From Escherichia phage E26: 64,000 nucleotides of DNA. Both the position numbers and the translations under genes were made by a program. Below the pieces are notes generated by a model that worked only from the letters and a program-made list of their open reading frames with translations, was not told where the DNA came from and searched no databases. How positions within the stretch are numbered: position 1 is the stretch's first letter; each line of letters begins with the position of its first letter. The stretch lies in sequence record MN655998.1; one strand, given 5' to 3'. Shown in pieces: positions 1,787-32,709 of the stretch.

Positions 1787-2326
1787 TCAAAGATCGCGAT
1801 ATTGTACATTATGAAAATGAGAACTTGCATTACCAATATTGTAGATAACAAATTCTTCATCCGGCGCTTGCGCTACAAATTGAGTATGAGCAACCGCCAC
1901 AACCTTAAAAATACGATCCGTGATCTTGTGTTTAATTTCTGCCCCTACTTCCATAGGAACATATTCATTTGTTTCTGTTTCAGTCGCAAAACAGCCATCT
2001 TCTTCATAAGCACGAACAAATCGGTCGCAATCAGTACGCTTAACAAATTCAAGAGTATATAATTCTCGTGAATTGTCGGTATAGACCAATACAGAATTAT
2101 TATGATAGCGAATCACATACAGGTTATTATCATCGTCAATTACACAAAAGCTACGGATTCCTTCGCCTTGACTCCAGCAGACATTAACCACCGTTCCTCT
2201 AATAAAAAAACTTTCCTTTAAATTAAAACTAGTCAATGTGCTAGCGTGCATTTTAACAACAACACCATCGCCAATTTCCAGTTTACGAAGTTTAACTTCT
2301 TTGCTCAGTACACAAAACATCATCAT
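1787..2326 (-). CDS. hypothetical protein
   Basis: ORF with ATG at 2326 and GAGAGGA RBS, directly downstream of a promoter cassette. Confidence 0.55.
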   Translation of the reverse strand: MMMFCVLSKEVKLRKLEIGDGVVVKMHASTLTSFNLKESFFIRGTVVNVCWSQGEGIRSFCVIDDDNNLYVIRYHNNSVLVYTDNSRELYTLEFVKRTDCDRFVRAYEEDGCFATETETNEYVPMEVGAEIKHKITDRIFKVVAVAHTQFVAQAPDEEFVIYNIGNASSHFHNVQYRDL

Positions 2327-2355
2327 GTTGTCCTCTCGTTGTTTTCGATGTGAGC

Positions 2356-2383
2356 ATTATACATTAGCTAATCAGGTTGTCAA
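2356..2383 (-). promoter_or_regulatory. sigma70-type early promoter (TTGACA-N16-TATAAT)
   Basis: Minus-strand -35 at 2378-2383, -10 at 2356-2361; immediately follows a terminator hairpin (PeSL-like arrangement). Confidence 0.65.
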
Positions 2384-2389
2384 CACCCA

Positions 2390-2420
2390 AAAACGAAAAA
2401 GCCGACCCTTTCGGATCGGC
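2390..2420 (-). terminator. rho-independent terminator after nrdD
   Basis: GC hairpin GCCGATCCGAAAGGGTCGGC followed by U-run on minus strand. Confidence 0.7.
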
Positions 2421-2426
2421 TGAAAA

Positions 2427-4289
2427 TTACATGTGCTTAACGCGGTTTACCATCTCGGAGTGTTTCCCGTGGTTGAATGGACGCAGATCAACAGATCCAA
2501 GATATCCACTAACGCGACGGATAACATTCATCTTTTCCAGATTGTCGTTGCCGCAATCAGGACAAACAAAACCAGACTCGGTCGCTCTCATTTCCTTATT
2601 AGATCCGCATACATGACATACATCAGAAGGAGTATTAACACCGAAGTAGTGCAATTTATCCATTGCATAGTCTACTACAGTTTCAAGACCTTTCAGGTTG
2701 TTTTTCATGTCTGGGAACTCAACATAAGAGATCATGCCACCGGACGCCAGCCAGTGATAATCTTTCTCAAAGTCGATTTTCTCAAATGGTGTGACTTTCC
2801 GGTCTACGTCAAGGTGGAATGAGTTGGTGTACCAGTCTTTATCGGTAGCACCCTTAACAATACCAAATTGCTCTCGATCCAGTCGATTAAATCGATAGCA
2901 AAGGCTCTCGGCTGGCGTACCGTAAAGACTAAACCCAAGTCCGGTTTCATCCTTCCATTTTTCAGTATAATGACGCAAGATCTTAAGAATATGTTTACCG
3001 TATCGCTGCGCATCTTCCGAATCAAACGGATGAACACCAAACAGGACGCTCAATACCTCATGTAAACCAATATATCCAAGAGAGATACTAGCGCGACCAT
3101 CTTTCAACACTTCCAAAATTTCATCGTTTTGATGAATACGGAAAAATGCACCTTCTGTATACAGCACCGGAGCAACATTGGCTTTAGCGCCTTTTAAAGC
3201 GTCTACGCGACTCATGAGCGCATCAAAGCAAATAGGCATACGATTGGCTAGCTCTTGTTCGAATAGCTCAATTCTGCGCATTACAGACGCTTTACCAGCA
3301 CGAAGCGCGGCAATAAGGGCAATACGCGGAAGATTCAGAGTCACAACACCTAAGTTATTACGTCCGTCTAATACTTCTTCGCCTTTCTCATTATGCCACA
3401 CACCCAGGAAGCTACGACAACCCATCGGGCTAACCGGAACACTAGATCCAGTGATGCTACGGTTATTCTTCGCAGAGATATAATCAGGGTAAAGACGCTT
3501 ACTAGAACATTCCAATGCAAGTTGCTTAATGTCGTAGTTCGGATCTTCCGGTTTAAGGTTTAATCCTTCTTCTAAGAACATCACCAGCTTAGGAAACACC
3601 GGAGTTATACCATCTTTACCTAAACCTTTAGTTCGAACTTTCAGGATCGCTTTCTGAATCAGTTTTTCTTCCCAGCTAGTACCCATACCAAAGGTTAAAG
3701 TCACAAAAGGCGTTTGACCGTTGGTGGAGAACAAAGTGTTGATTTCATATTCCAACGCTTGATACCCGTCTAAAGTTTCTTTTTCTGTCTTCTCTTGTGC
3801 ATAGAGAGTATCAGCTTTGATTCCGTAGGTTTCGGCATCAGCAAGGTGTTTATGATATGTTTTCTCAACGTATGGCGCTAAAACCTGATCGATGTTTGCA
3901 ATTGTGGTCCCGCCATATTGATGACTTGCCACCTGTGCGATAATTTGAGCGGTTACAGCACAAGCAACGCCGATTGATTTCGGACTTTCGATTTGTGCGC
4001 TACCCAATTTAAAACCATTCTCTAACATGTCTTTGAGATTAACAAGACAGCAGTTAGTAAACGGCATAGCGGGTGCATAATCCATATCATGATAATGAAT
4101 ATCACCGTCTACATGCGCTTTATAGATGTGCTCAGGTAACACGGTTTTAGCAATCTGTTTAGACACAGCACCAGCAATCAGATCTCGACGTGTCGGGAAT
4201 GTTCGCGCGTCTTTGTTCGCGTTCTCTTTGCTTACTTCGTTTTCTTTACCCGTTGCGATCTCTGTAATGTCTTTGATTAGTTTTTCCAT
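2427..4289 (-). CDS. nrdD: anaerobic ribonucleoside-triphosphate reductase NrdD (glycyl radical enzyme)
   Basis: 620 aa; C-terminal zinc ribbon (CHVCGS...CPDCG) and glycyl radical motif RVSGYLG; ATG at 4289 with AGGTGA RBS. Confidence 0.95.
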   Translation of the reverse strand: MEKLIKDITEIATGKENEVSKENANKDARTFPTRRDLIAGAVSKQIAKTVLPEHIYKAHVDGDIHYHDMDYAPAMPFTNCCLVNLKDMLENGFKLGSAQIESPKSIGVACAVTAQIIAQVASHQYGGTTIANIDQVLAPYVEKTYHKHLADAETYGIKADTLYAQEKTEKETLDGYQALEYEINTLFSTNGQTPFVTLTFGMGTSWEEKLIQKAILKVRTKGLGKDGITPVFPKLVMFLEEGLNLKPEDPNYDIKQLALECSSKRLYPDYISAKNNRSITGSSVPVSPMGCRSFLGVWHNEKGEEVLDGRNNLGVVTLNLPRIALIAALRAGKASVMRRIELFEQELANRMPICFDALMSRVDALKGAKANVAPVLYTEGAFFRIHQNDEILEVLKDGRASISLGYIGLHEVLSVLFGVHPFDSEDAQRYGKHILKILRHYTEKWKDETGLGFSLYGTPAESLCYRFNRLDREQFGIVKGATDKDWYTNSFHLDVDRKVTPFEKIDFEKDYHWLASGGMISYVEFPDMKNNLKGLETVVDYAMDKLHYFGVNTPSDVCHVCGSNKEMRATESGFVCPDCGNDNLEKMNVIRRVSGYLGSVDLRPFNHGKHSEMVNRVKHM

Positions 4290-4333: not shown

Positions 4334-4828
4334 TTATTTTACCAGTTCTGCTAATTCTTTTTCCGCCGCTTCCAGTTCAGCTTTAAGCTGTTTAATCTCT
4401 TGTCGCTTCTTATTAGCGGCTTCCTGCTTACTATTTCGGATAACCTGATCTAGATACAACTCCCAATCCTGAATATTTTTGATAATGTAGCCGTCAACAT
4501 TAATTGGTCGTAGATTCAGTACAGCTTCCAGTTTAGTCGCAAAAACTTTAATTGCTGGTGTGAAGTATTCATATTCGTTATCTTCAAACCAATAACCTAG
4601 ACTTGCATTATCAATACGAAGACGAAGTTCAAGATCAAGGTCTTTATCTTCGGTGTAAAGATCTTTCACCTGACCCAGCGAACTAACAACAACTTTAAAA
4701 CGAATTTTATCTACACCACCAAACACATCAGTAAGTATACCAGCAATTGAGCTATTAGCGCAAGATTGGTCGCTGAATGCGTCAAGGTTTTCTTTAGTTA
4801 CAGTATACCAAACATCTTGTACCCACAT
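4334..4828 (-). CDS. hypothetical protein
   Basis: ORF with ATG at 4828 and GAGAGGA RBS, behind a promoter cassette. Confidence 0.55.
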   Translation of the reverse strand: MWVQDVWYTVTKENLDAFSDQSCANSSIAGILTDVFGGVDKIRFKVVVSSLGQVKDLYTEDKDLDLELRLRIDNASLGYWFEDNEYEYFTPAIKVFATKLEAVLNLRPINVDGYIIKNIQDWELYLDQVIRNSKQEAANKKRQEIKQLKAELEAAEKELAELVK

Positions 4829-4858
4829 AATATAATCCTCTCGTTGTTAAGTGGGAGT

Positions 4859-4886
4859 ATTATAGCATACTCCCTTCGCATGTCAA
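4859..4886 (-). promoter_or_regulatory. sigma70-type early promoter, -10 inside a hairpin loop
   Basis: TTGACA (4881-4886) N16 TATAAT (4859-4864); GGGAGTA/TACTCCC stem encloses the -10. Confidence 0.6.
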
Positions 4887-6061
4887 GCACTAACTTTTTT
4901 CTTTACTGCTTTCACCTTCTGGCGAATTGCTCGAATCTCTTCGATCTCTTTTTCAGTATCTTTAACAATTTCTTTGCGATTCTGAATATCTTTATCGAGA
5001 TTATCATCAAGTTTAGGCAGCATGTCAATCAAGAACTTTTTAAGGTCTTTCAGGTTGCGAATAACAGTACCTTCACCCATTACCGCCACACCTACACCGT
5101 CCGGCAGATCACCAAACAGTTTAACCAGTTCAGACAGATGATCATGATCTTCTAGTGCTTCTTCCGGTTCAGATGGCAGTTCAACAAAGTTATAACGTTC
5201 ATCATTGCTGATCAAGTGATACCAGCAAAGCCCGAAAGATTTCGGTGTATATTCTACACCATCAATTTCAACCGCGTCAACACTTCCATAATCATCTACT
5301 TTAGTTACCTTAAATCCTTGTCCCAGCTTTTGAACAATTTCAACAACATGACTTGATACAGTTTCAGCGGTAAACCAATATGGCAAATTATGCTGATTTG
5401 GCTTGTAGCGTTCACCTACTTTAAATCTCTGACCATCCGCTTGCATAGAATGAAATTGTTGTTTCGTGATTTCCGCGAAGTATTCAAATTCGCTACCGTC
5501 AAACAAGCAATTCCATTGATCACAAAAACGATCCGCCTTAACAGTTTCACCTTTCGCGGTGATCATGGTAGCTGATCCGTGCAATTCTTCTTCAACTAAA
5601 AAGCCATATTCGACAAAATCAACAAGTTTCATAGCTTCTTTGTGATCTGGATCATGCTCTCCCCAGAATCGCTTAAATTCTTGCAAACCTTCTGGTGTAA
5701 ACGAATAACATTTACCTTTTTCAAAGTAAGTCGGCATTGCATCCTCTTTCTTGTTCATCGCTTCGTATGCCTCTTTTGAGATGCGTTTAAAGTATTTACG
5801 CTCATCGTGCATAATCATAGTAGCCCAATAATAAACGATATCCTCAGCGGAATAAACTACATCTCCAGCTTCAATAGTAATAACATGACCGTTGTCATCT
5901 TTTTCTAATACTTTAAAGCCCTTTTCGACGATTTCAGCAACCCGAATATGACCACGGCGCGAAGCATCGGTCAGAATAATTGAATAGCGAGAAAAGTCTA
6001 GAAACTCATCTTTACCACCTTCACGGAATGCATAGTAATGACCTTCAAAGAATTTAGCCAT
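4883..6061 (-). CDS. hypothetical protein, paralog family A (two copies of a shared domain)
   Basis: 392 aa; shares ERKYFKRIxK and GFKV(L/T) motifs with the next two ORFs; ATG at 6061. Confidence 0.6.
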   Translation of the reverse strand: MAKFFEGHYYAFREGGKDEFLDFSRYSIILTDASRRGHIRVAEIVEKGFKVLEKDDNGHVITIEAGDVVYSAEDIVYYWATMIMHDERKYFKRISKEAYEAMNKKEDAMPTYFEKGKCYSFTPEGLQEFKRFWGEHDPDHKEAMKLVDFVEYGFLVEEELHGSATMITAKGETVKADRFCDQWNCLFDGSEFEYFAEITKQQFHSMQADGQRFKVGERYKPNQHNLPYWFTAETVSSHVVEIVQKLGQGFKVTKVDDYGSVDAVEIDGVEYTPKSFGLCWYHLISNDERYNFVELPSEPEEALEDHDHLSELVKLFGDLPDGVGVAVMGEGTVIRNLKDLKKFLIDMLPKLDDNLDKDIQNRKEIVKDTEKEIEEIRAIRQKVKAVKKKVSA

Positions 6062-28850: not shown

Positions 28851-29315
28851 TTACAGTTTGGTCGTCCACTCCAGGTCTAGATCTTCGACATACTCATGAG
28901 ATCGGACAATCTCTAAATCAAACTCTAGGTCAGTGCCAAATTTACGCGCACCAACATCATAAGAAAGCGTGATATGCGGTACATATTCAGGATAATCCCA
29001 CGTCGCACCTAAAGCAGTGCCGATATCGTGTCTGAATTGCATGTAGTCGCTTTCAAATGCCAGCACAAGCGCATTAGTACCGGATTGAGTTTCAAACACT
29101 TTCAGATGGCATAGAGAGCCTAAGAACTTCTCCCCTTCTTCTGGGATAAACGGAACATAGACACGAGAATATAAGATAGTGCTATGCAGTTTATCACGAG
29201 GAACAGCATTAGGCAGATCGTAAAACTCCTGCAATTTTTCAATGCGGTCTAGTGTATCCTCAGTGAATTTAACCGCAGCATATGTACCTTTAACGGATTC
29301 TCGAAACGGGGTCAT
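28851..29315 (-). CDS. 57B: 2H phosphoesterase, Acb1 (gp57B)-like anti-CBASS cyclic-oligonucleotide phosphodiesterase
   Basis: Two H-x-T/S motifs (LHSTI and PHITLS) of the 2H fold; sits downstream of 57A and gene 1 as T4 57B; ATG at 29315. Confidence 0.65.
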   Translation of the reverse strand: MTPFRESVKGTYAAVKFTEDTLDRIEKLQEFYDLPNAVPRDKLHSTILYSRVYVPFIPEEGEKFLGSLCHLKVFETQSGTNALVLAFESDYMQFRHDIGTALGATWDYPEYVPHITLSYDVGARKFGTDLEFDLEIVRSHEYVEDLDLEWTTKL

Positions 29316-29317
29316 AA

Positions 29318-29578
29318 TCAAGCCTCCGTGATCAGTTCTACTTCCTCTTTAGCGTCTTCCGCTGCTTCGTCTTTAGGGAGAAGTGCTTTCACTTCTTCGA
29401 CAATAGCATCAAGGGAAACAGTCCCGTTTTCGTCTGGCTGAATACCCAGAATGCGTACCAGTTCCATCAATACACGCTCACGATCTTTCAGTTGGCCTTC
29501 TAAGAATGCGGCCTTTTCTTGAGTGTCAAACAGACGTACTTTCAGGACATTAATCATTTGTTCATGCTGATTGGACAT
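29318..29578 (-). CDS. 57A: tail fiber assembly chaperone gp57A
   Basis: 86 aa coiled-coil with acidic C-terminus, next to gene 1 as in T4; ATG at 29578 with AGGAG RBS. Confidence 0.65.
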   Translation of the reverse strand: MSNQHEQMINVLKVRLFDTQEKAAFLEGQLKDRERVLMELVRILGIQPDENGTVSLDAIVEEVKALLPKDEAAEDAKEEVELITEA

Positions 29579-30282: not shown

Positions 30283-30873
30283 TTACTTTCTAAAAGCAGG
30301 ATGCATAGCTTTAATTCCTTCCACTCGCTGACGATCCGCCGCCTGAATTGCAGGGCGAGGAACGATCAGCTGACCATCACGTTCAATGCTCATCGTTTTA
30401 AATGGAAGAATTGCAGTACACACCAGAGATTCATGCATATCATCGGTGTATGTTAACTCAAGTTCCCCCAATTGTGAACACCAACAACCATAAAAGTTAA
30501 AAGTGCACACAATGTTACGGCGTTCGTTGTCCATCATGTGAACTTGAACGGCTTCCGGCATTGAATCCTTCCACGCTGTGGAGTTACCGTTATTGTAGTC
30601 TACTATAGAAAGCATCCATGTGTAAAGGTTTAGATAGCTTTCCAAATGCTCATCGACAATAAACCGGACTACCAACGGGTCAAACTCTACATGACTAGAC
30701 GGATAATCAGCTACTGCCAAACCATATTGACCAGCAACTTGTTTAGTCGGTGGAATGGTTATAGCCGGAAGTGTAACACCTTGACAGTTTAAAGTAAAGC
30801 CTTTTGTTAGTTGACCATCTGGAATGGCAATCTGCCAGTTGCTGGGGTTAGCATAGTTAAAGAGATTAGACAT
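30283..30873 (-). CDS. 3: tail tube terminator / tail completion protein gp3
   Basis: Assigned by synteny (between gene 1 and gene 2) and size (196 aa). Confidence 0.6.
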   Translation of the reverse strand: MSNLFNYANPSNWQIAIPDGQLTKGFTLNCQGVTLPAITIPPTKQVAGQYGLAVADYPSSHVEFDPLVVRFIVDEHLESYLNLYTWMLSIVDYNNGNSTAWKDSMPEAVQVHMMDNERRNIVCTFNFYGCWCSQLGELELTYTDDMHESLVCTAILPFKTMSIERDGQLIVPRPAIQAADRQRVEGIKAMHPAFRK

Positions 30874-31062
30874 TACTGATTCCTCAAATGAAAATATTTA
30901 TTAACAATTGTCGCTTTGCGACGTGCCGGAGGCACTGACTACTTTTTAACCGAAACAAATTTTTATTATTCTAAAGATCTTTCTTCGTTTTGGTTATGTT
31001 TTAACCAATAACTATATTTTTATACAGTAATAAATAAAACGGGTACTATACGAGGACTTCTT

Positions 31063-31317
31063 ATGACAGAAGACATTTTGTTAAAACTCTATGATCGTTT
31101 GGATAACGAATTGGCAACATTGCGGGGTGAAGTTCTCTATTTGTCTAAATGCAATACAGATCTGCTTAAGCAGATTGCAGAAAGGGATGATCAAATAAAA
31201 TCCCTTTCAGGTGCATTACGTGATCGCGACAAGGCATTAGAGATTTTACAGCGTGTTACCAATAAGGAAGAATTAAAAGACTTCTTACATGGTTATGCTC
31301 ATGCCATCGATCTATAA
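31063..31317 (+). CDS. hypothetical coiled-coil protein encoded opposite to flanking late genes
   Basis: 84 aa ORF with GAGGA RBS, heptad-like hydrophobic pattern, followed by a hairpin terminator. Confidence 0.45.
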   Translation: MTEDILLKLYDRLDNELATLRGEVLYLSKCNTDLLKQIAERDDQIKSLSGALRDRDKALEILQRVTNKEELKDFLHGYAHAIDL

Positions 31318-31324
31318 TAAAAAA

Positions 31325-31343
31325 GCCCGTCAATGACGGGCTT
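31325..31343. terminator. bidirectional hairpin terminator between convergent genes
   Basis: Hairpin AGCCCGTC-AAT-GACGGGCT flanked by A-run upstream and T-rich downstream. Confidence 0.6.
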
Positions 31344-31347
31344 AATC

Positions 31348-32169
31348 TTATGCATCCTTCCAAACTTTCCTTGCGTCGTATTTCTTGCCTTTTGACATAA
31401 ACTGATATGTAGGCATATAGATAATATTGCTCCAGTCTTTCGGGCTAATCTCAACAAGTTTTGTTTTAATGTGTCCCGGTAGATATGCTTTGATCATGTG
31501 GTCACTACCACGCATACCTTTTACATCGCTCCATTTGATTTTTAAGCGTGTTTTATTGCTCAAGGTAGGAGTAGATGCATATTGCTTTAAAAGTGCCTCT
31601 AAAAACTGCTGACGGGCTTTAGGAGTTACATAGTGTAAGTTAAGACCCAGCATCACAGTATTACCCGCCTTTGTCTTAGAATCACCCAGACAAATGATCA
31701 GCGGGAAAACATCCCAATATGGCAAAGTGTCTTTATACTTAGCATCATACATAAAGGTATAGATTCGCCCTACTTGCGGTTTTACAATCTGGTGTCCCTT
31801 TATTCCAGCTTTTATTGTTTTAGTAAACCACTCCTGTGATTTTTCTTTAGGACGACTCTTTGATACAGCACGCATAGACGCACGAAAATCATTAATCATC
31901 ATCATTGCGCGTTGCTGCTTATTGAGACCCTTTGCGCCTTTCCCTTTTAGTTTTTCAACTTCTATTGCTGTTTTAATTTCGCTGGCATAACGAGACATAC
32001 TTTTAGTGAAAGTCGCATAGGCTATTCCCTTAGAATCTGCAAATGCTTTAGCTGTCATGCCTTTGGCTTTTGCCTTCGCAAATTCTACACCCAATTCGAC
32101 CCACTGTTTAGACTTTCGTTTTTGGGGAGACGGCTTTTCGTCTTCTGTGATTATTTCAAATACGCTCAT
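31348..32169 (-). CDS. 2: DNA end protector protein gp2
   Basis: Assigned by synteny (between 3 and 4) and size (273 aa). Confidence 0.65.
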   Translation of the reverse strand: MSVFEIITEDEKPSPQKRKSKQWVELGVEFAKAKAKGMTAKAFADSKGIAYATFTKSMSRYASEIKTAIEVEKLKGKGAKGLNKQQRAMMMINDFRASMRAVSKSRPKEKSQEWFTKTIKAGIKGHQIVKPQVGRIYTFMYDAKYKDTLPYWDVFPLIICLGDSKTKAGNTVMLGLNLHYVTPKARQQFLEALLKQYASTPTLSNKTRLKIKWSDVKGMRGSDHMIKAYLPGHIKTKLVEISPKDWSNIIYMPTYQFMSKGKKYDARKVWKDA

Positions 32170-32654: not shown

Positions 32655-32669
32655 TTTAGCACCCTTTAT

Positions 32670-32677
32670 TATAAATA
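32670..32677 (+). promoter_or_regulatory. T4-type late promoter (TATAAATA)
   Basis: Exact TATAAATA 33 nt upstream of gene 53 start. Confidence 0.65.
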
Positions 32678-32709
32678 CATAATACTATTTATCAATTGAG
32701 GGTGATAAA

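Follow-up and report, generated by a model that had tools for sequence, protein, structure and literature searches.

The gene 3–gene 2 junction of phage E26

We analysed a 64,000-nt stretch of the Escherichia phage E26 genome (MN655998.1; hereafter the window), which comes from a member of Krischvirus (Straboviridae), the RB49-like "pseudo-T-even" T4-type phages. The 2-kb stretch around the open reading frame considered here shares 97–98.5% identity with RB49 and with about 50 further Krischvirus phages, and by the RB49 annotation the local gene order is 57B, 57A, 1 and 3 on the minus strand, RB49p130 on the plus strand, 2 and 4 on the minus strand, and 53, 5 and onward on the plus strand. The plus-strand frame, which we call ORF130, and its immediate surroundings comprise the following features.

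30283..30873, minus strand: gene 3, tail completion/sheath stabiliser, left neighbour; 196-aa ORF corresponding to RB49p129, 98% DNA identity
31052..31056, plus strand: ribosome-binding site GAGGA, 6 nt 5' of the ORF130 ATG, found by sequence inspection
31063..31317, plus strand: ORF130, equal to RB49ORF130w, an acidic, predicted coiled-coil protein of 84 aa and 9.7 kDa (ORF list, RB49 annotation and PHROG match)
31197..31200, plus strand: A4 run within ORF130; some metagenomic contigs have A5 or A6 here, which yields shortened products
31348..32169, minus strand: gene 2, DNA end protector, right neighbour; 273-aa ORF corresponding to RB49p131

An earlier note on this DNA had described an 84-aa plus-strand ORF with a good ribosome-binding site between minus-strand genes, preceded by an AT-rich gap of about 190 nt on the 5' side of gene 3, and both descriptions hold: the gap (30874-31062) is 189 nt long, with a GC content of 30% versus about 40% in the flanks. 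ORF130 ends in two TAA codons in succession, and gene 2, for which the Pfam family Phage_T4_gp2 was found in orthologous loci, has its stop at 31348. A purine-rich ribosome-binding site is retained in relatives, as AGAGGA in L003, AAGGAG in L007 and GGAGG in L008. The suggestion that the ORF is novel fails, since it is the same gene as RB49ORF130w (RB49p130, NP_891701; phrog_17832), which has been labelled "hypothetical protein" in databases ever since deposition of the RB49 sequence and whose product is 100% identical in most Krischvirus records; the hairpin 3' of it already figures as a terminator in Nolan et al. 2006 (PMC1524935).

Conservation of ORF130

The match between ORF130 and phrog_17832 is full-length (E = 2e-57), and tblastn recovered an intact protein in 58 of 58 phage records, all of them Krischvirus, with at least 99% identity in 52. 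Few orthologues lie beyond this genus: searches of 5.8 billion proteins and 1.84 billion cluster representatives yielded P0004 (73% identity), P0005 (67%) and P0009 (43-44%). On T4-like contigs, the latter two are encoded between genes 3 and 2 on the opposite strand, and P0004 lies on a 1-kb contig on which only the gene 2 side is visible. These contigs represent metagenomic sister lineages of Krischvirus (three or four lineages), in which gp2, gp3, gp4 and gp53 are 72-85% identical to those of the window, the corresponding values for CC31 and Lw1 being 49-59%. Scans of IMG/VR and JGI metagenomes for diverse relatives returned Krischvirus-level copies only, and no paralogue of ORF130 was found within the window. 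The comparison of the 3-2 junction across relatives that the earlier note had proposed thus found ORF130 conserved throughout the RB49 clade.

It could be argued that ORF130 is a chance frame and that the 470-nt interval serves gene 3 as a regulatory spacer. In so AT-rich a genome, ORFs of 80-150 aa often arise by chance, and our literature search found no paper on RB49ORF130w or on a Krischvirus transcriptome or virion proteome, and no transcript, protein or phenotype data for ORF130. However, dN/dS in the plus-strand frame was 0.11-0.16 relative to the diverged orthologues, with synonymous sites close to saturation, and we count this as a refutation. The frame is moreover intact in all 58 isolates and remains so in relatives with as little as 44% identity, its ribosome-binding site is conserved, and the strand composition changes with it, the GC skew flipping sign over ORF130. 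No minus-strand ORF of at least 40 aa occurs within the interval, and ORF130 has diverged at about the same rate as gp57A and gp1 of the same loci. We therefore give the chance-frame reading practically no weight; on the comparative evidence, ORF130 is a real, conserved gene.

Loss of ORF130 was never seen among the isolates (58 Krischvirus records), and disrupted alleles came from metagenomic contigs in which the A-run is lengthened. The A5 allele occurs in three contigs with two SNP haplotypes and the A6 allele in three contigs from one project; they give 53- and 59-aa products, the remainder of ORF130 being intact. In the A5 contigs, the A-run 5' of the terminator is also one base shorter. 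Sequencing error in the homopolymer may account for these frameshifts, and it is also possible that they are a sign that ORF130 is dispensable.

Insertion at a variable junction

The absence of a gene between 3 and 2 in T-even phages, which the earlier note had supposed for T4, was checked on T2, in which the junction is empty. CC31, Aes508 and Vibrio phage D490 likewise have no gene between 2 and 3, so that ORF130 is missing at this place in Tequatrovirus, Karamvirus, Tulanevirus and a Vibrio T4-like phage. This distribution, restricted to the RB49 clade, points to a clade-specific insertion, and relative to other T4-type phages ORF130 is, as judged from these junctions, the inserted small gene that the earlier note had supposed.

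The junction also takes other cargo. In an Acinetobacter phage it carries a homing endonuclease, and within Krischvirus endonuclease genes lie between the ORF130 terminator and gene 2 in ECD7, Phi1 and JSE, and between the gene 3 promoter and the first of two gap hairpins in AV108, phiS and an IMG/VR contig. In the Pseudotevenvirus Lw1, the junction holds an opposite-strand gene, Lw1_gp190, which like ORF130 converges on gene 2 and diverges from gene 3 and is preceded by the motif AATAAATA and by GC-rich GCGAAGC/GCTTCGC elements. Its product, however, is 261 aa long and unrelated in sequence to ORF130, which makes it independent cargo at one hotspot. On these comparisons, the 3|2 junction is a recurrent insertion hotspot.

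Transcription signals

Three elements relate to the transcription of ORF130 and its two neighbours.

30895..30902, minus strand: AATAAATA, predicted late-promoter motif of gene 3, whose ATG lies 21 nt further on; the block is identical in L003
31029..31036, plus strand: predicted late-promoter motif AATAAATA for ORF130, 26 nt 5' of its ATG, based on motif, spacing and conservation
31323..31343, either strand: terminator hairpin AAGCCCGTC-AAT-GACGGGCTT with a 9-bp stem, between convergent ORF130 and gene 2; fold z = -4.7 (plus) and -3.7 (minus)

The motif upstream of ORF130 is present at the same place as TATAAATA in L003, L007 and L025, in flanking sequence that has diverged. In L008, the most distant relative, a terminator is followed by CTAAATA 17 nt 5' of the orthologue's ATG, and the distance from motif to ATG in ORF130 and its relatives ranges from 17 to 38 nt, in agreement with the spacing at clear late genes of the window. 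RB49 late promoters have A or T at -13, and CTAAATA is a variant late-promoter consensus of Aeh1 (PMC1524935). Across the window, WATAAATA is not over-represented (12 copies observed, 13.5 expected), and it is therefore position and conservation that carry the late-promoter argument: nine of the 12 copies lie 21-55 nt (mostly 21-33) 5' of substantial ORFs, including genes 53 and 3. The hidden Markov model of Nolan et al. 2006 placed no late promoter at ORF130; it reported only 17 RB49 sites and also missed gene 3 (PMC1524935). From motif, spacing and conservation, we infer that ORF130 transcription is late and gp55-dependent.

Novel ORFs of RB49 are usually served by PeSLs, which combine a near-consensus sigma-70 promoter with a stem-loop (PMC2839356), and ORF130 might accordingly be an early ORFan cassette driven by a strong sigma-70 promoter. 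The PeSL and ORFan cassettes of RB49 and phi1 (Arbiol et al. 2010, PMC2839356) resemble the present locus in that a small clade-specific ORF has its own promoter and adjacent stem-loops in an indel-prone region; each of the two phages has about 50 PeSLs, of which a few lie within virion modules beside genes of unknown function, and the gap studied here is AT-rich, contains stem-loops and has a readable, weak plus-strand site (TTGGTT-17-TATATT, 8/12). That site, however, is the best on the plus strand of the gap, which has no sigma-70 match of 9/12 or better, and it is not kept in L003, L007 or L025, whereas PeSL promoters fit the sigma-70 consensus, as do the 11/12 TTGACA-17-(C/T)ATAAT promoters of the hyperplastic region at 22-29 kb of the window. 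The conserved element is instead the late motif; for the RB49 interval 62.7-63.3 kb, Nolan et al. 2006 give no promoter of the early class (PMC1524935). The gap hairpins sit 94 nt 5' of the late motif and are without the polyG/polyC stems described for PeSLs. ORF130 also differs from these cassettes in lying within a conserved virion module and in being held at one position, with stable rather than shuffled synteny, across lineages with 72-85% core-protein identity. We consequently rejected an early or PeSL promoter for ORF130, since the gap has no near-consensus plus-strand sigma-70 site, and regard the cassette reading as improbable.

Late transcription from the conserved motif, our preferred reading, would end near the 3' end of gene 2. 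The earlier note had proposed a terminator shared by the two convergent genes, and here the evidence is divided. The 9-bp hairpin is present, L003 and L007 retain its stem, and Nolan et al. 2006 give the TransTerm entry "RB49ORF130w-><-2" in their supplement (PMC1524935). In the window, the U-tract, TTTTTTATTATA, follows the stem on the gene 2 strand only, and the ORF130 strand has AATCTTAT after the stem; in L008 the polarity is reversed, with the U-tract on the strand of the ORF130 orthologue. The U-tract is thus poor on the ORF130 strand, which counts against the shared-terminator step.

Tandem hairpins and other elements of the gap

Further elements lie in the gap between gene 3 and ORF130.

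30910..30922, either strand: hairpin 1, GTCGC-TTT-GCGAC, 5-bp stem and 3-nt loop (sequence, folding and covariation)
30923..30935, either strand: hairpin 2, GTGCC-GGA-GGCAC, directly adjoining hairpin 1 (sequence, folding and covariation)
30968..30996, minus strand: weak, speculative sigma-70-like site TAACCA-17-TAGAAT, located upstream of the hairpins and directed at gene 3; 8/12, below the scan threshold
30990..31008, either strand: inverted repeat TTGGTTA-N5-TAACCAA, with no second perfect copy in the window

The two palindromes proposed earlier are real and remain paired in six distinct sequences. Folded as RNA, either strand would give a pair of neighbouring 5-bp stems (-13.5 kcal/mol; z = -2.0 and -3.0). 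All five pairs of hairpin 1 are kept in the six sequences, three of them through double compensatory changes, and its loop is TTC in most relatives; the five pairs of hairpin 2 are also kept, with the outer pair changed from G-C to A-T in L003 and L007 and with GGA, GTA, GAA and TAC as loop variants. Watson-Crick pairing was found in 59 of 59 scorable cells, four of the ten pairs had changed on both sides and none on one side only, and the covariation score was reached by 0 of 500 shuffles, pairing collapsing when the partners were slid. The sample (the window, RB49/AV108, L017/L026, L025, L003 and L007) is small, representing about four lineages, and on the strength of its compensatory changes the tandem hairpins are a selected structure.

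Because the hairpins lie between the divergent late motifs of gene 3 and ORF130, they fall outside both predicted late transcripts. Of the regulatory region of its own that the earlier note had attributed to the ORF, there are a ribosome-binding site, a conserved late motif and a hairpin 3' of the ORF, and the signal of importance is the predicted late promoter rather than the palindromes. That the tandem hairpins act as canonical terminators is doubtful, since on neither strand does a U-tract directly follow either stem. The minus-strand gap region corresponding to the weak sigma-70-like site scores 9/12 in L003 and 10/12 in L007, and from the position of this site upstream of them, the hairpins may lie in the leader of a minor early transcript or attenuate it. 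They contain no G-U pairs and have a GCGAAGC-type loop in most relatives, and a DNA-level or protein-binding role would fit equally well. In AV108, a 0.6-kb endonuclease insertion parts the hairpins from gene 3 and leaves them undisturbed. With low confidence, we consider it their most likely role to insulate weakly against transcription entering from outside, or to attenuate it. The mini-hairpin motif GCNWWGC is not enriched in the window (92 copies, 91.6 expected), and no known RNA family came near its gathering score in the interval. The inverted repeat was considered as a conserved operator and set aside; it is kept in L007 and not in L003 or L025, and is probably incidental.

The ORF130 protein

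The product of ORF130 has a pI of 5.1 and a mass of 9.7 kDa. An AlphaFold2 model built on a seven-sequence alignment (pLDDT 89.6) consists of helices at residues 2-64 and 68-83, and pLDDT in the first of these is 81-98 and mostly above 95. The coiled coil anticipated earlier is borne out by this model, in which a continuous amphipathic helix carries a heptad register unbroken from L6 (d) to L62, that is, eight heptads or about 57 residues. The a positions are Y10, L17, V24, N31, I38, I45, L52 and L59, and the d positions L6, L13, L20, L27, L34, R41, L48, R55 and L62, seven of nine being Leu. Parallel dimers classically have Leu at d together with beta-branched side chains and a single Asn at a, and from these residue types and established coiled-coil rules, the coiled coil is most likely a parallel dimer. 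It shares with GCN4-like leucine zippers the Leu at d, the beta-branched residues and single Asn at a, and the register of about 57 residues, and differs from them in having no basic DNA-binding region; the likeness is compositional and structural and does not reflect homology. Invariant residues cluster in LRDR-KA-E-L-R (52-64) and in FL-GYAH (74-80), with GYAHA present in all but one relative, and the C-terminal FL-GYAH helix is a probable partner-binding surface.

No homologue of known function was found in Pfam, PHROGs, NCBIfam, PADLOC or PDB profile searches, by phmmer over 1.84 billion representatives, or in searches of 5.8 billion proteins. Family and PDB profile matches were low-scoring coiled coils only (NEMO, Sir4, Rad50, SMC and LmuB arms), the top PDB sequence hits being the NEMO and Sir4 coiled coils; Foldseek returned nothing from the PDB and only the protein's own orthologue from BFVD. 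The sequence contains no signal peptide or membrane segment, and no PADLOC or anti-defence-related family was matched. A capsid-targeting or gp21 cleavage motif was considered at I-A-E, residues 38-40, and rejected, as it is not kept in relatives.

The T4 gp57A chaperone (PF17594, phrog_1002) resembles the ORF130 product in that both are small (about 80-90 aa), acidic and all-helical and share the 57B-57A-1-3-2-4 neighbourhood. ORF130 might then be a diverged copy of this nearby tail-fibre chaperone, of similar size and likewise helical and oligomeric: the proteins are 84 and 88 aa long, their genes are about 1.5 kb apart, and there is a local likeness between L..LRDRDKAL and L..LKDRERVL. However, hhalign gave a probability of 2.9% over only 18 aligned columns, and ORF130 hits neither Pfam GP57 nor phrog_1002, whereas the window's true gp57A hits both. 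The two also differ in strand, promoter type and C-terminal motif, with no detectable homology. Paralogy with gp57A is effectively refuted at the sequence level, and we consider this origin very improbable.

Possible function and significance

The explanation that we favour as a whole, with moderate confidence, is that ORF130 is a clade-restricted accessory gene, made late and helping virion completion. In an RB49-like ancestor, it would have been inserted on the opposite strand between the gene 2 terminator and the gene 3 promoter, to be transcribed late from its own gp55-type promoter (AATAAATA, 31029-31036), translated from the GAGGA site and, perhaps, terminated at the hairpin common to convergent gene 2. 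Residues 6-62 of the product would zip as an eight-heptad coiled coil, leaving the C-terminal FL-GYAH helix to bind a partner, and the protein could act as a non-essential helper, or as a minor or packaged component, of the 3/2/4 head-tail completion cluster. The several parts of this account are not equally secure: the analysis shows that ORF130 is a real, conserved and syntenic gene with a helical heptad structure in its product, a conserved late motif and no strong early promoter, and its late timing, dimeric state and part in morphogenesis are predictions. ORF130 is a known, uncharacterised, lineage-restricted accessory gene, probably expressed late; its role in virion completion, which is suggested by predicted late timing, position in the 3-2-4 cluster and fold type, is tentative and falls well short of an even chance. 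No homology backing a morphogenesis role emerged from the gp57A comparison (2.9%) or the fold searches, which recovered the protein's own orthologue only.

A non-structural late role, in regulation or counter-defence, is about as defensible. ORF130 could be a real late gene whose product regulates the late phase (lysis timing, transcription or translation), counters host defence or is injected, a reading that we consider unlikely but credible. Neither PDB profiles nor Foldseek nor the gp57A comparison linked it to a structural partner; its neighbours include counter-defence genes (57B is Acb1 in orthologous loci, and gp2 protects DNA ends); and a clade-restricted, possibly dispensable gene fits an accessory host-interaction gene. 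On the other hand, the protein matches no PADLOC or anti-defence-related family, has neither a signal peptide nor a membrane segment, and lacks a conserved capsid-targeting or protease motif, I-A-E 38-40 being lost in relatives.

More ambitious is the combination in which ORF130 would be a late leucine-zipper addition to the T4 completion machinery, partnering gp2, gp3 or gp4 or co-packaged with them, with slippage at the A-run acting as a switch and the hairpins as a new DNA- or RNA-level control of late transcription. We judge this combination quite improbable. The consequences of ORF130 as a late accessory gene are modest, and no new mechanism has been demonstrated. What the present analysis adds to the existing annotation is a predicted late promoter, orthologues in sister lineages with purifying selection, a leucine-zipper architecture, the insertion-hotspot context and covarying tandem hairpins. 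On these grounds phrog_17832 could be annotated as a late coiled-coil protein if the inferred timing is right, and they present ORF130 as a small, probably non-essential target for the study of accessory head-tail completion steps.

In the comparison by Nolan et al. 2006, late promoters were found only 5' of orthologues of T4 late genes, and the authors' conclusion was that novel ORFs share the expression of early genes (PMC1524935). If our inference of late transcription is true, ORF130 would be one of few predicted late novel ORFs in a T4-type genome, and a conserved virion module would be able both to gain and to keep a lineage-specific late gene at the 3|2 hotspot.

Insertions at the gene 2/gene 3 junction

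The junction between genes 2 and 3 is a recurrent insertion hotspot. In several Krischvirus isolates homing-endonuclease genes lie on one or other side of ORF130, the 84-aa predicted coiled-coil ORF of this junction, and a T4-like Acinetobacter phage carries one there as well. The AV108 endonuclease itself brings in a TTGACA-17-TAGATT promoter.

Features at the gene 2/gene 3 junction of related phages
L002 (ECD7), 2650-3684: homing-endonuclease insertion beside ORF130
L010 (AV108), 1245-1778 and 2282-3424: homing-endonuclease insertions beside ORF130
L015 (Acinetobacter phage Morttis), 2337-3005: homing-endonuclease gene
L012 (Escherichia phage Lw1, a Pseudotevenvirus), 2372-3157, minus strand: 261-aa hypothetical gene
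L008 (168-kb T4-like contig), 4620-4960, 5072-5266 and 5327-5941: extra-ORF region, plus-strand ORFs

The Lw1 gene also lies between genes 2 and 3 and, like ORF130, runs opposite to them; the two are unrelated. Its upstream region (to L012:3427) contains AATAAATA and repeated GCGAAGC/GCTTCGC elements, and a TTTTGGTATGGTTTTTAACCAA block at this gene is similar to window 30988-31008. L008, the most distant relative, has two additional plus-strand ORFs of 64 and 204 aa between gene 3 and its ORF130 orthologue, each followed by a hairpin; the 64-aa product looks helix-turn-helix-like. Ahead of these ORFs are a TTGACA promoter and at least nine copies of a AGCGATTAC-like 9-11-mer in both orientations, which look like an operator or iteron array.

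Promoter-like sites and repeats

A perfect inverted repeat, TTGGTTA-N5-TAACCAA, lies at window 30990-31008 and is the sole perfect copy in the 64 kb. It is also perfect in the relative L007, and is absent from the relatives L003 and L025. Promoter-like sites were located in the gap between gene 3 and ORF130 and in the 55 nt that separate the divergent genes 4 and 53.

Promoter-like sites in the window
30968-30996, minus strand: sigma-70-like TAACCA-17-TAGAAT, situated upstream of the tandem hairpins and directed at gene 3
32668-32695, minus strand (that of gene 4): sigma-70 site TTGATA-16-TATAAT, 11/12
32670-32677, plus strand: canonical late promoter TATAAATA of gene 53

The first may give gene 3 a minor early promoter; under sigma-70 scoring the matching gap region gave 9/12 in L003 and 10/12 in L007, with a perfect TATAAT. 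The 11/12 site overlaps gene 53's late promoter, which is on the opposite strand.

The numbering of three deposited Krischvirus genomes, MN850615 (kvi), OP114734 (pEJ01) and MW748999 (Skers), begins at one common base, window 31027, which is at the late-promoter motif; this base is 36 nt ahead of the ORF130 ATG. This common start is presumably a copied convention, not a physical end.

Variation within ORF130 and its neighborhood

An internal A4 run of ORF130 (window 31197-31200) is A5 or A6 in metagenomic assemblies (L017:601-762, L018, L019, L020:601-780, L021 and L022). The A5 allele occurs in three contigs with two SNP haplotypes, and the A6 allele in three contigs, all from one project. 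With these alleles the product is cut short at 53 or 59 aa and the remainder of the ORF is intact; the A-run ahead of the terminator is also one base shorter in the A5 contigs. The variants could be genuine slippage alleles or homopolymer errors.

Toward ORF130 the gene order is 57B, 57A, 1, 3, ORF130. Gene 57B carries a Pfam Acb1 (anti-CBASS nuclease) domain in the L003 and L008 phages.

Gene 57B orthologues
L003, 862-1317
L008, 2449-2889
Window, about 28851-29321

ORF130 is thus only four genes away from a counter-defence gene.
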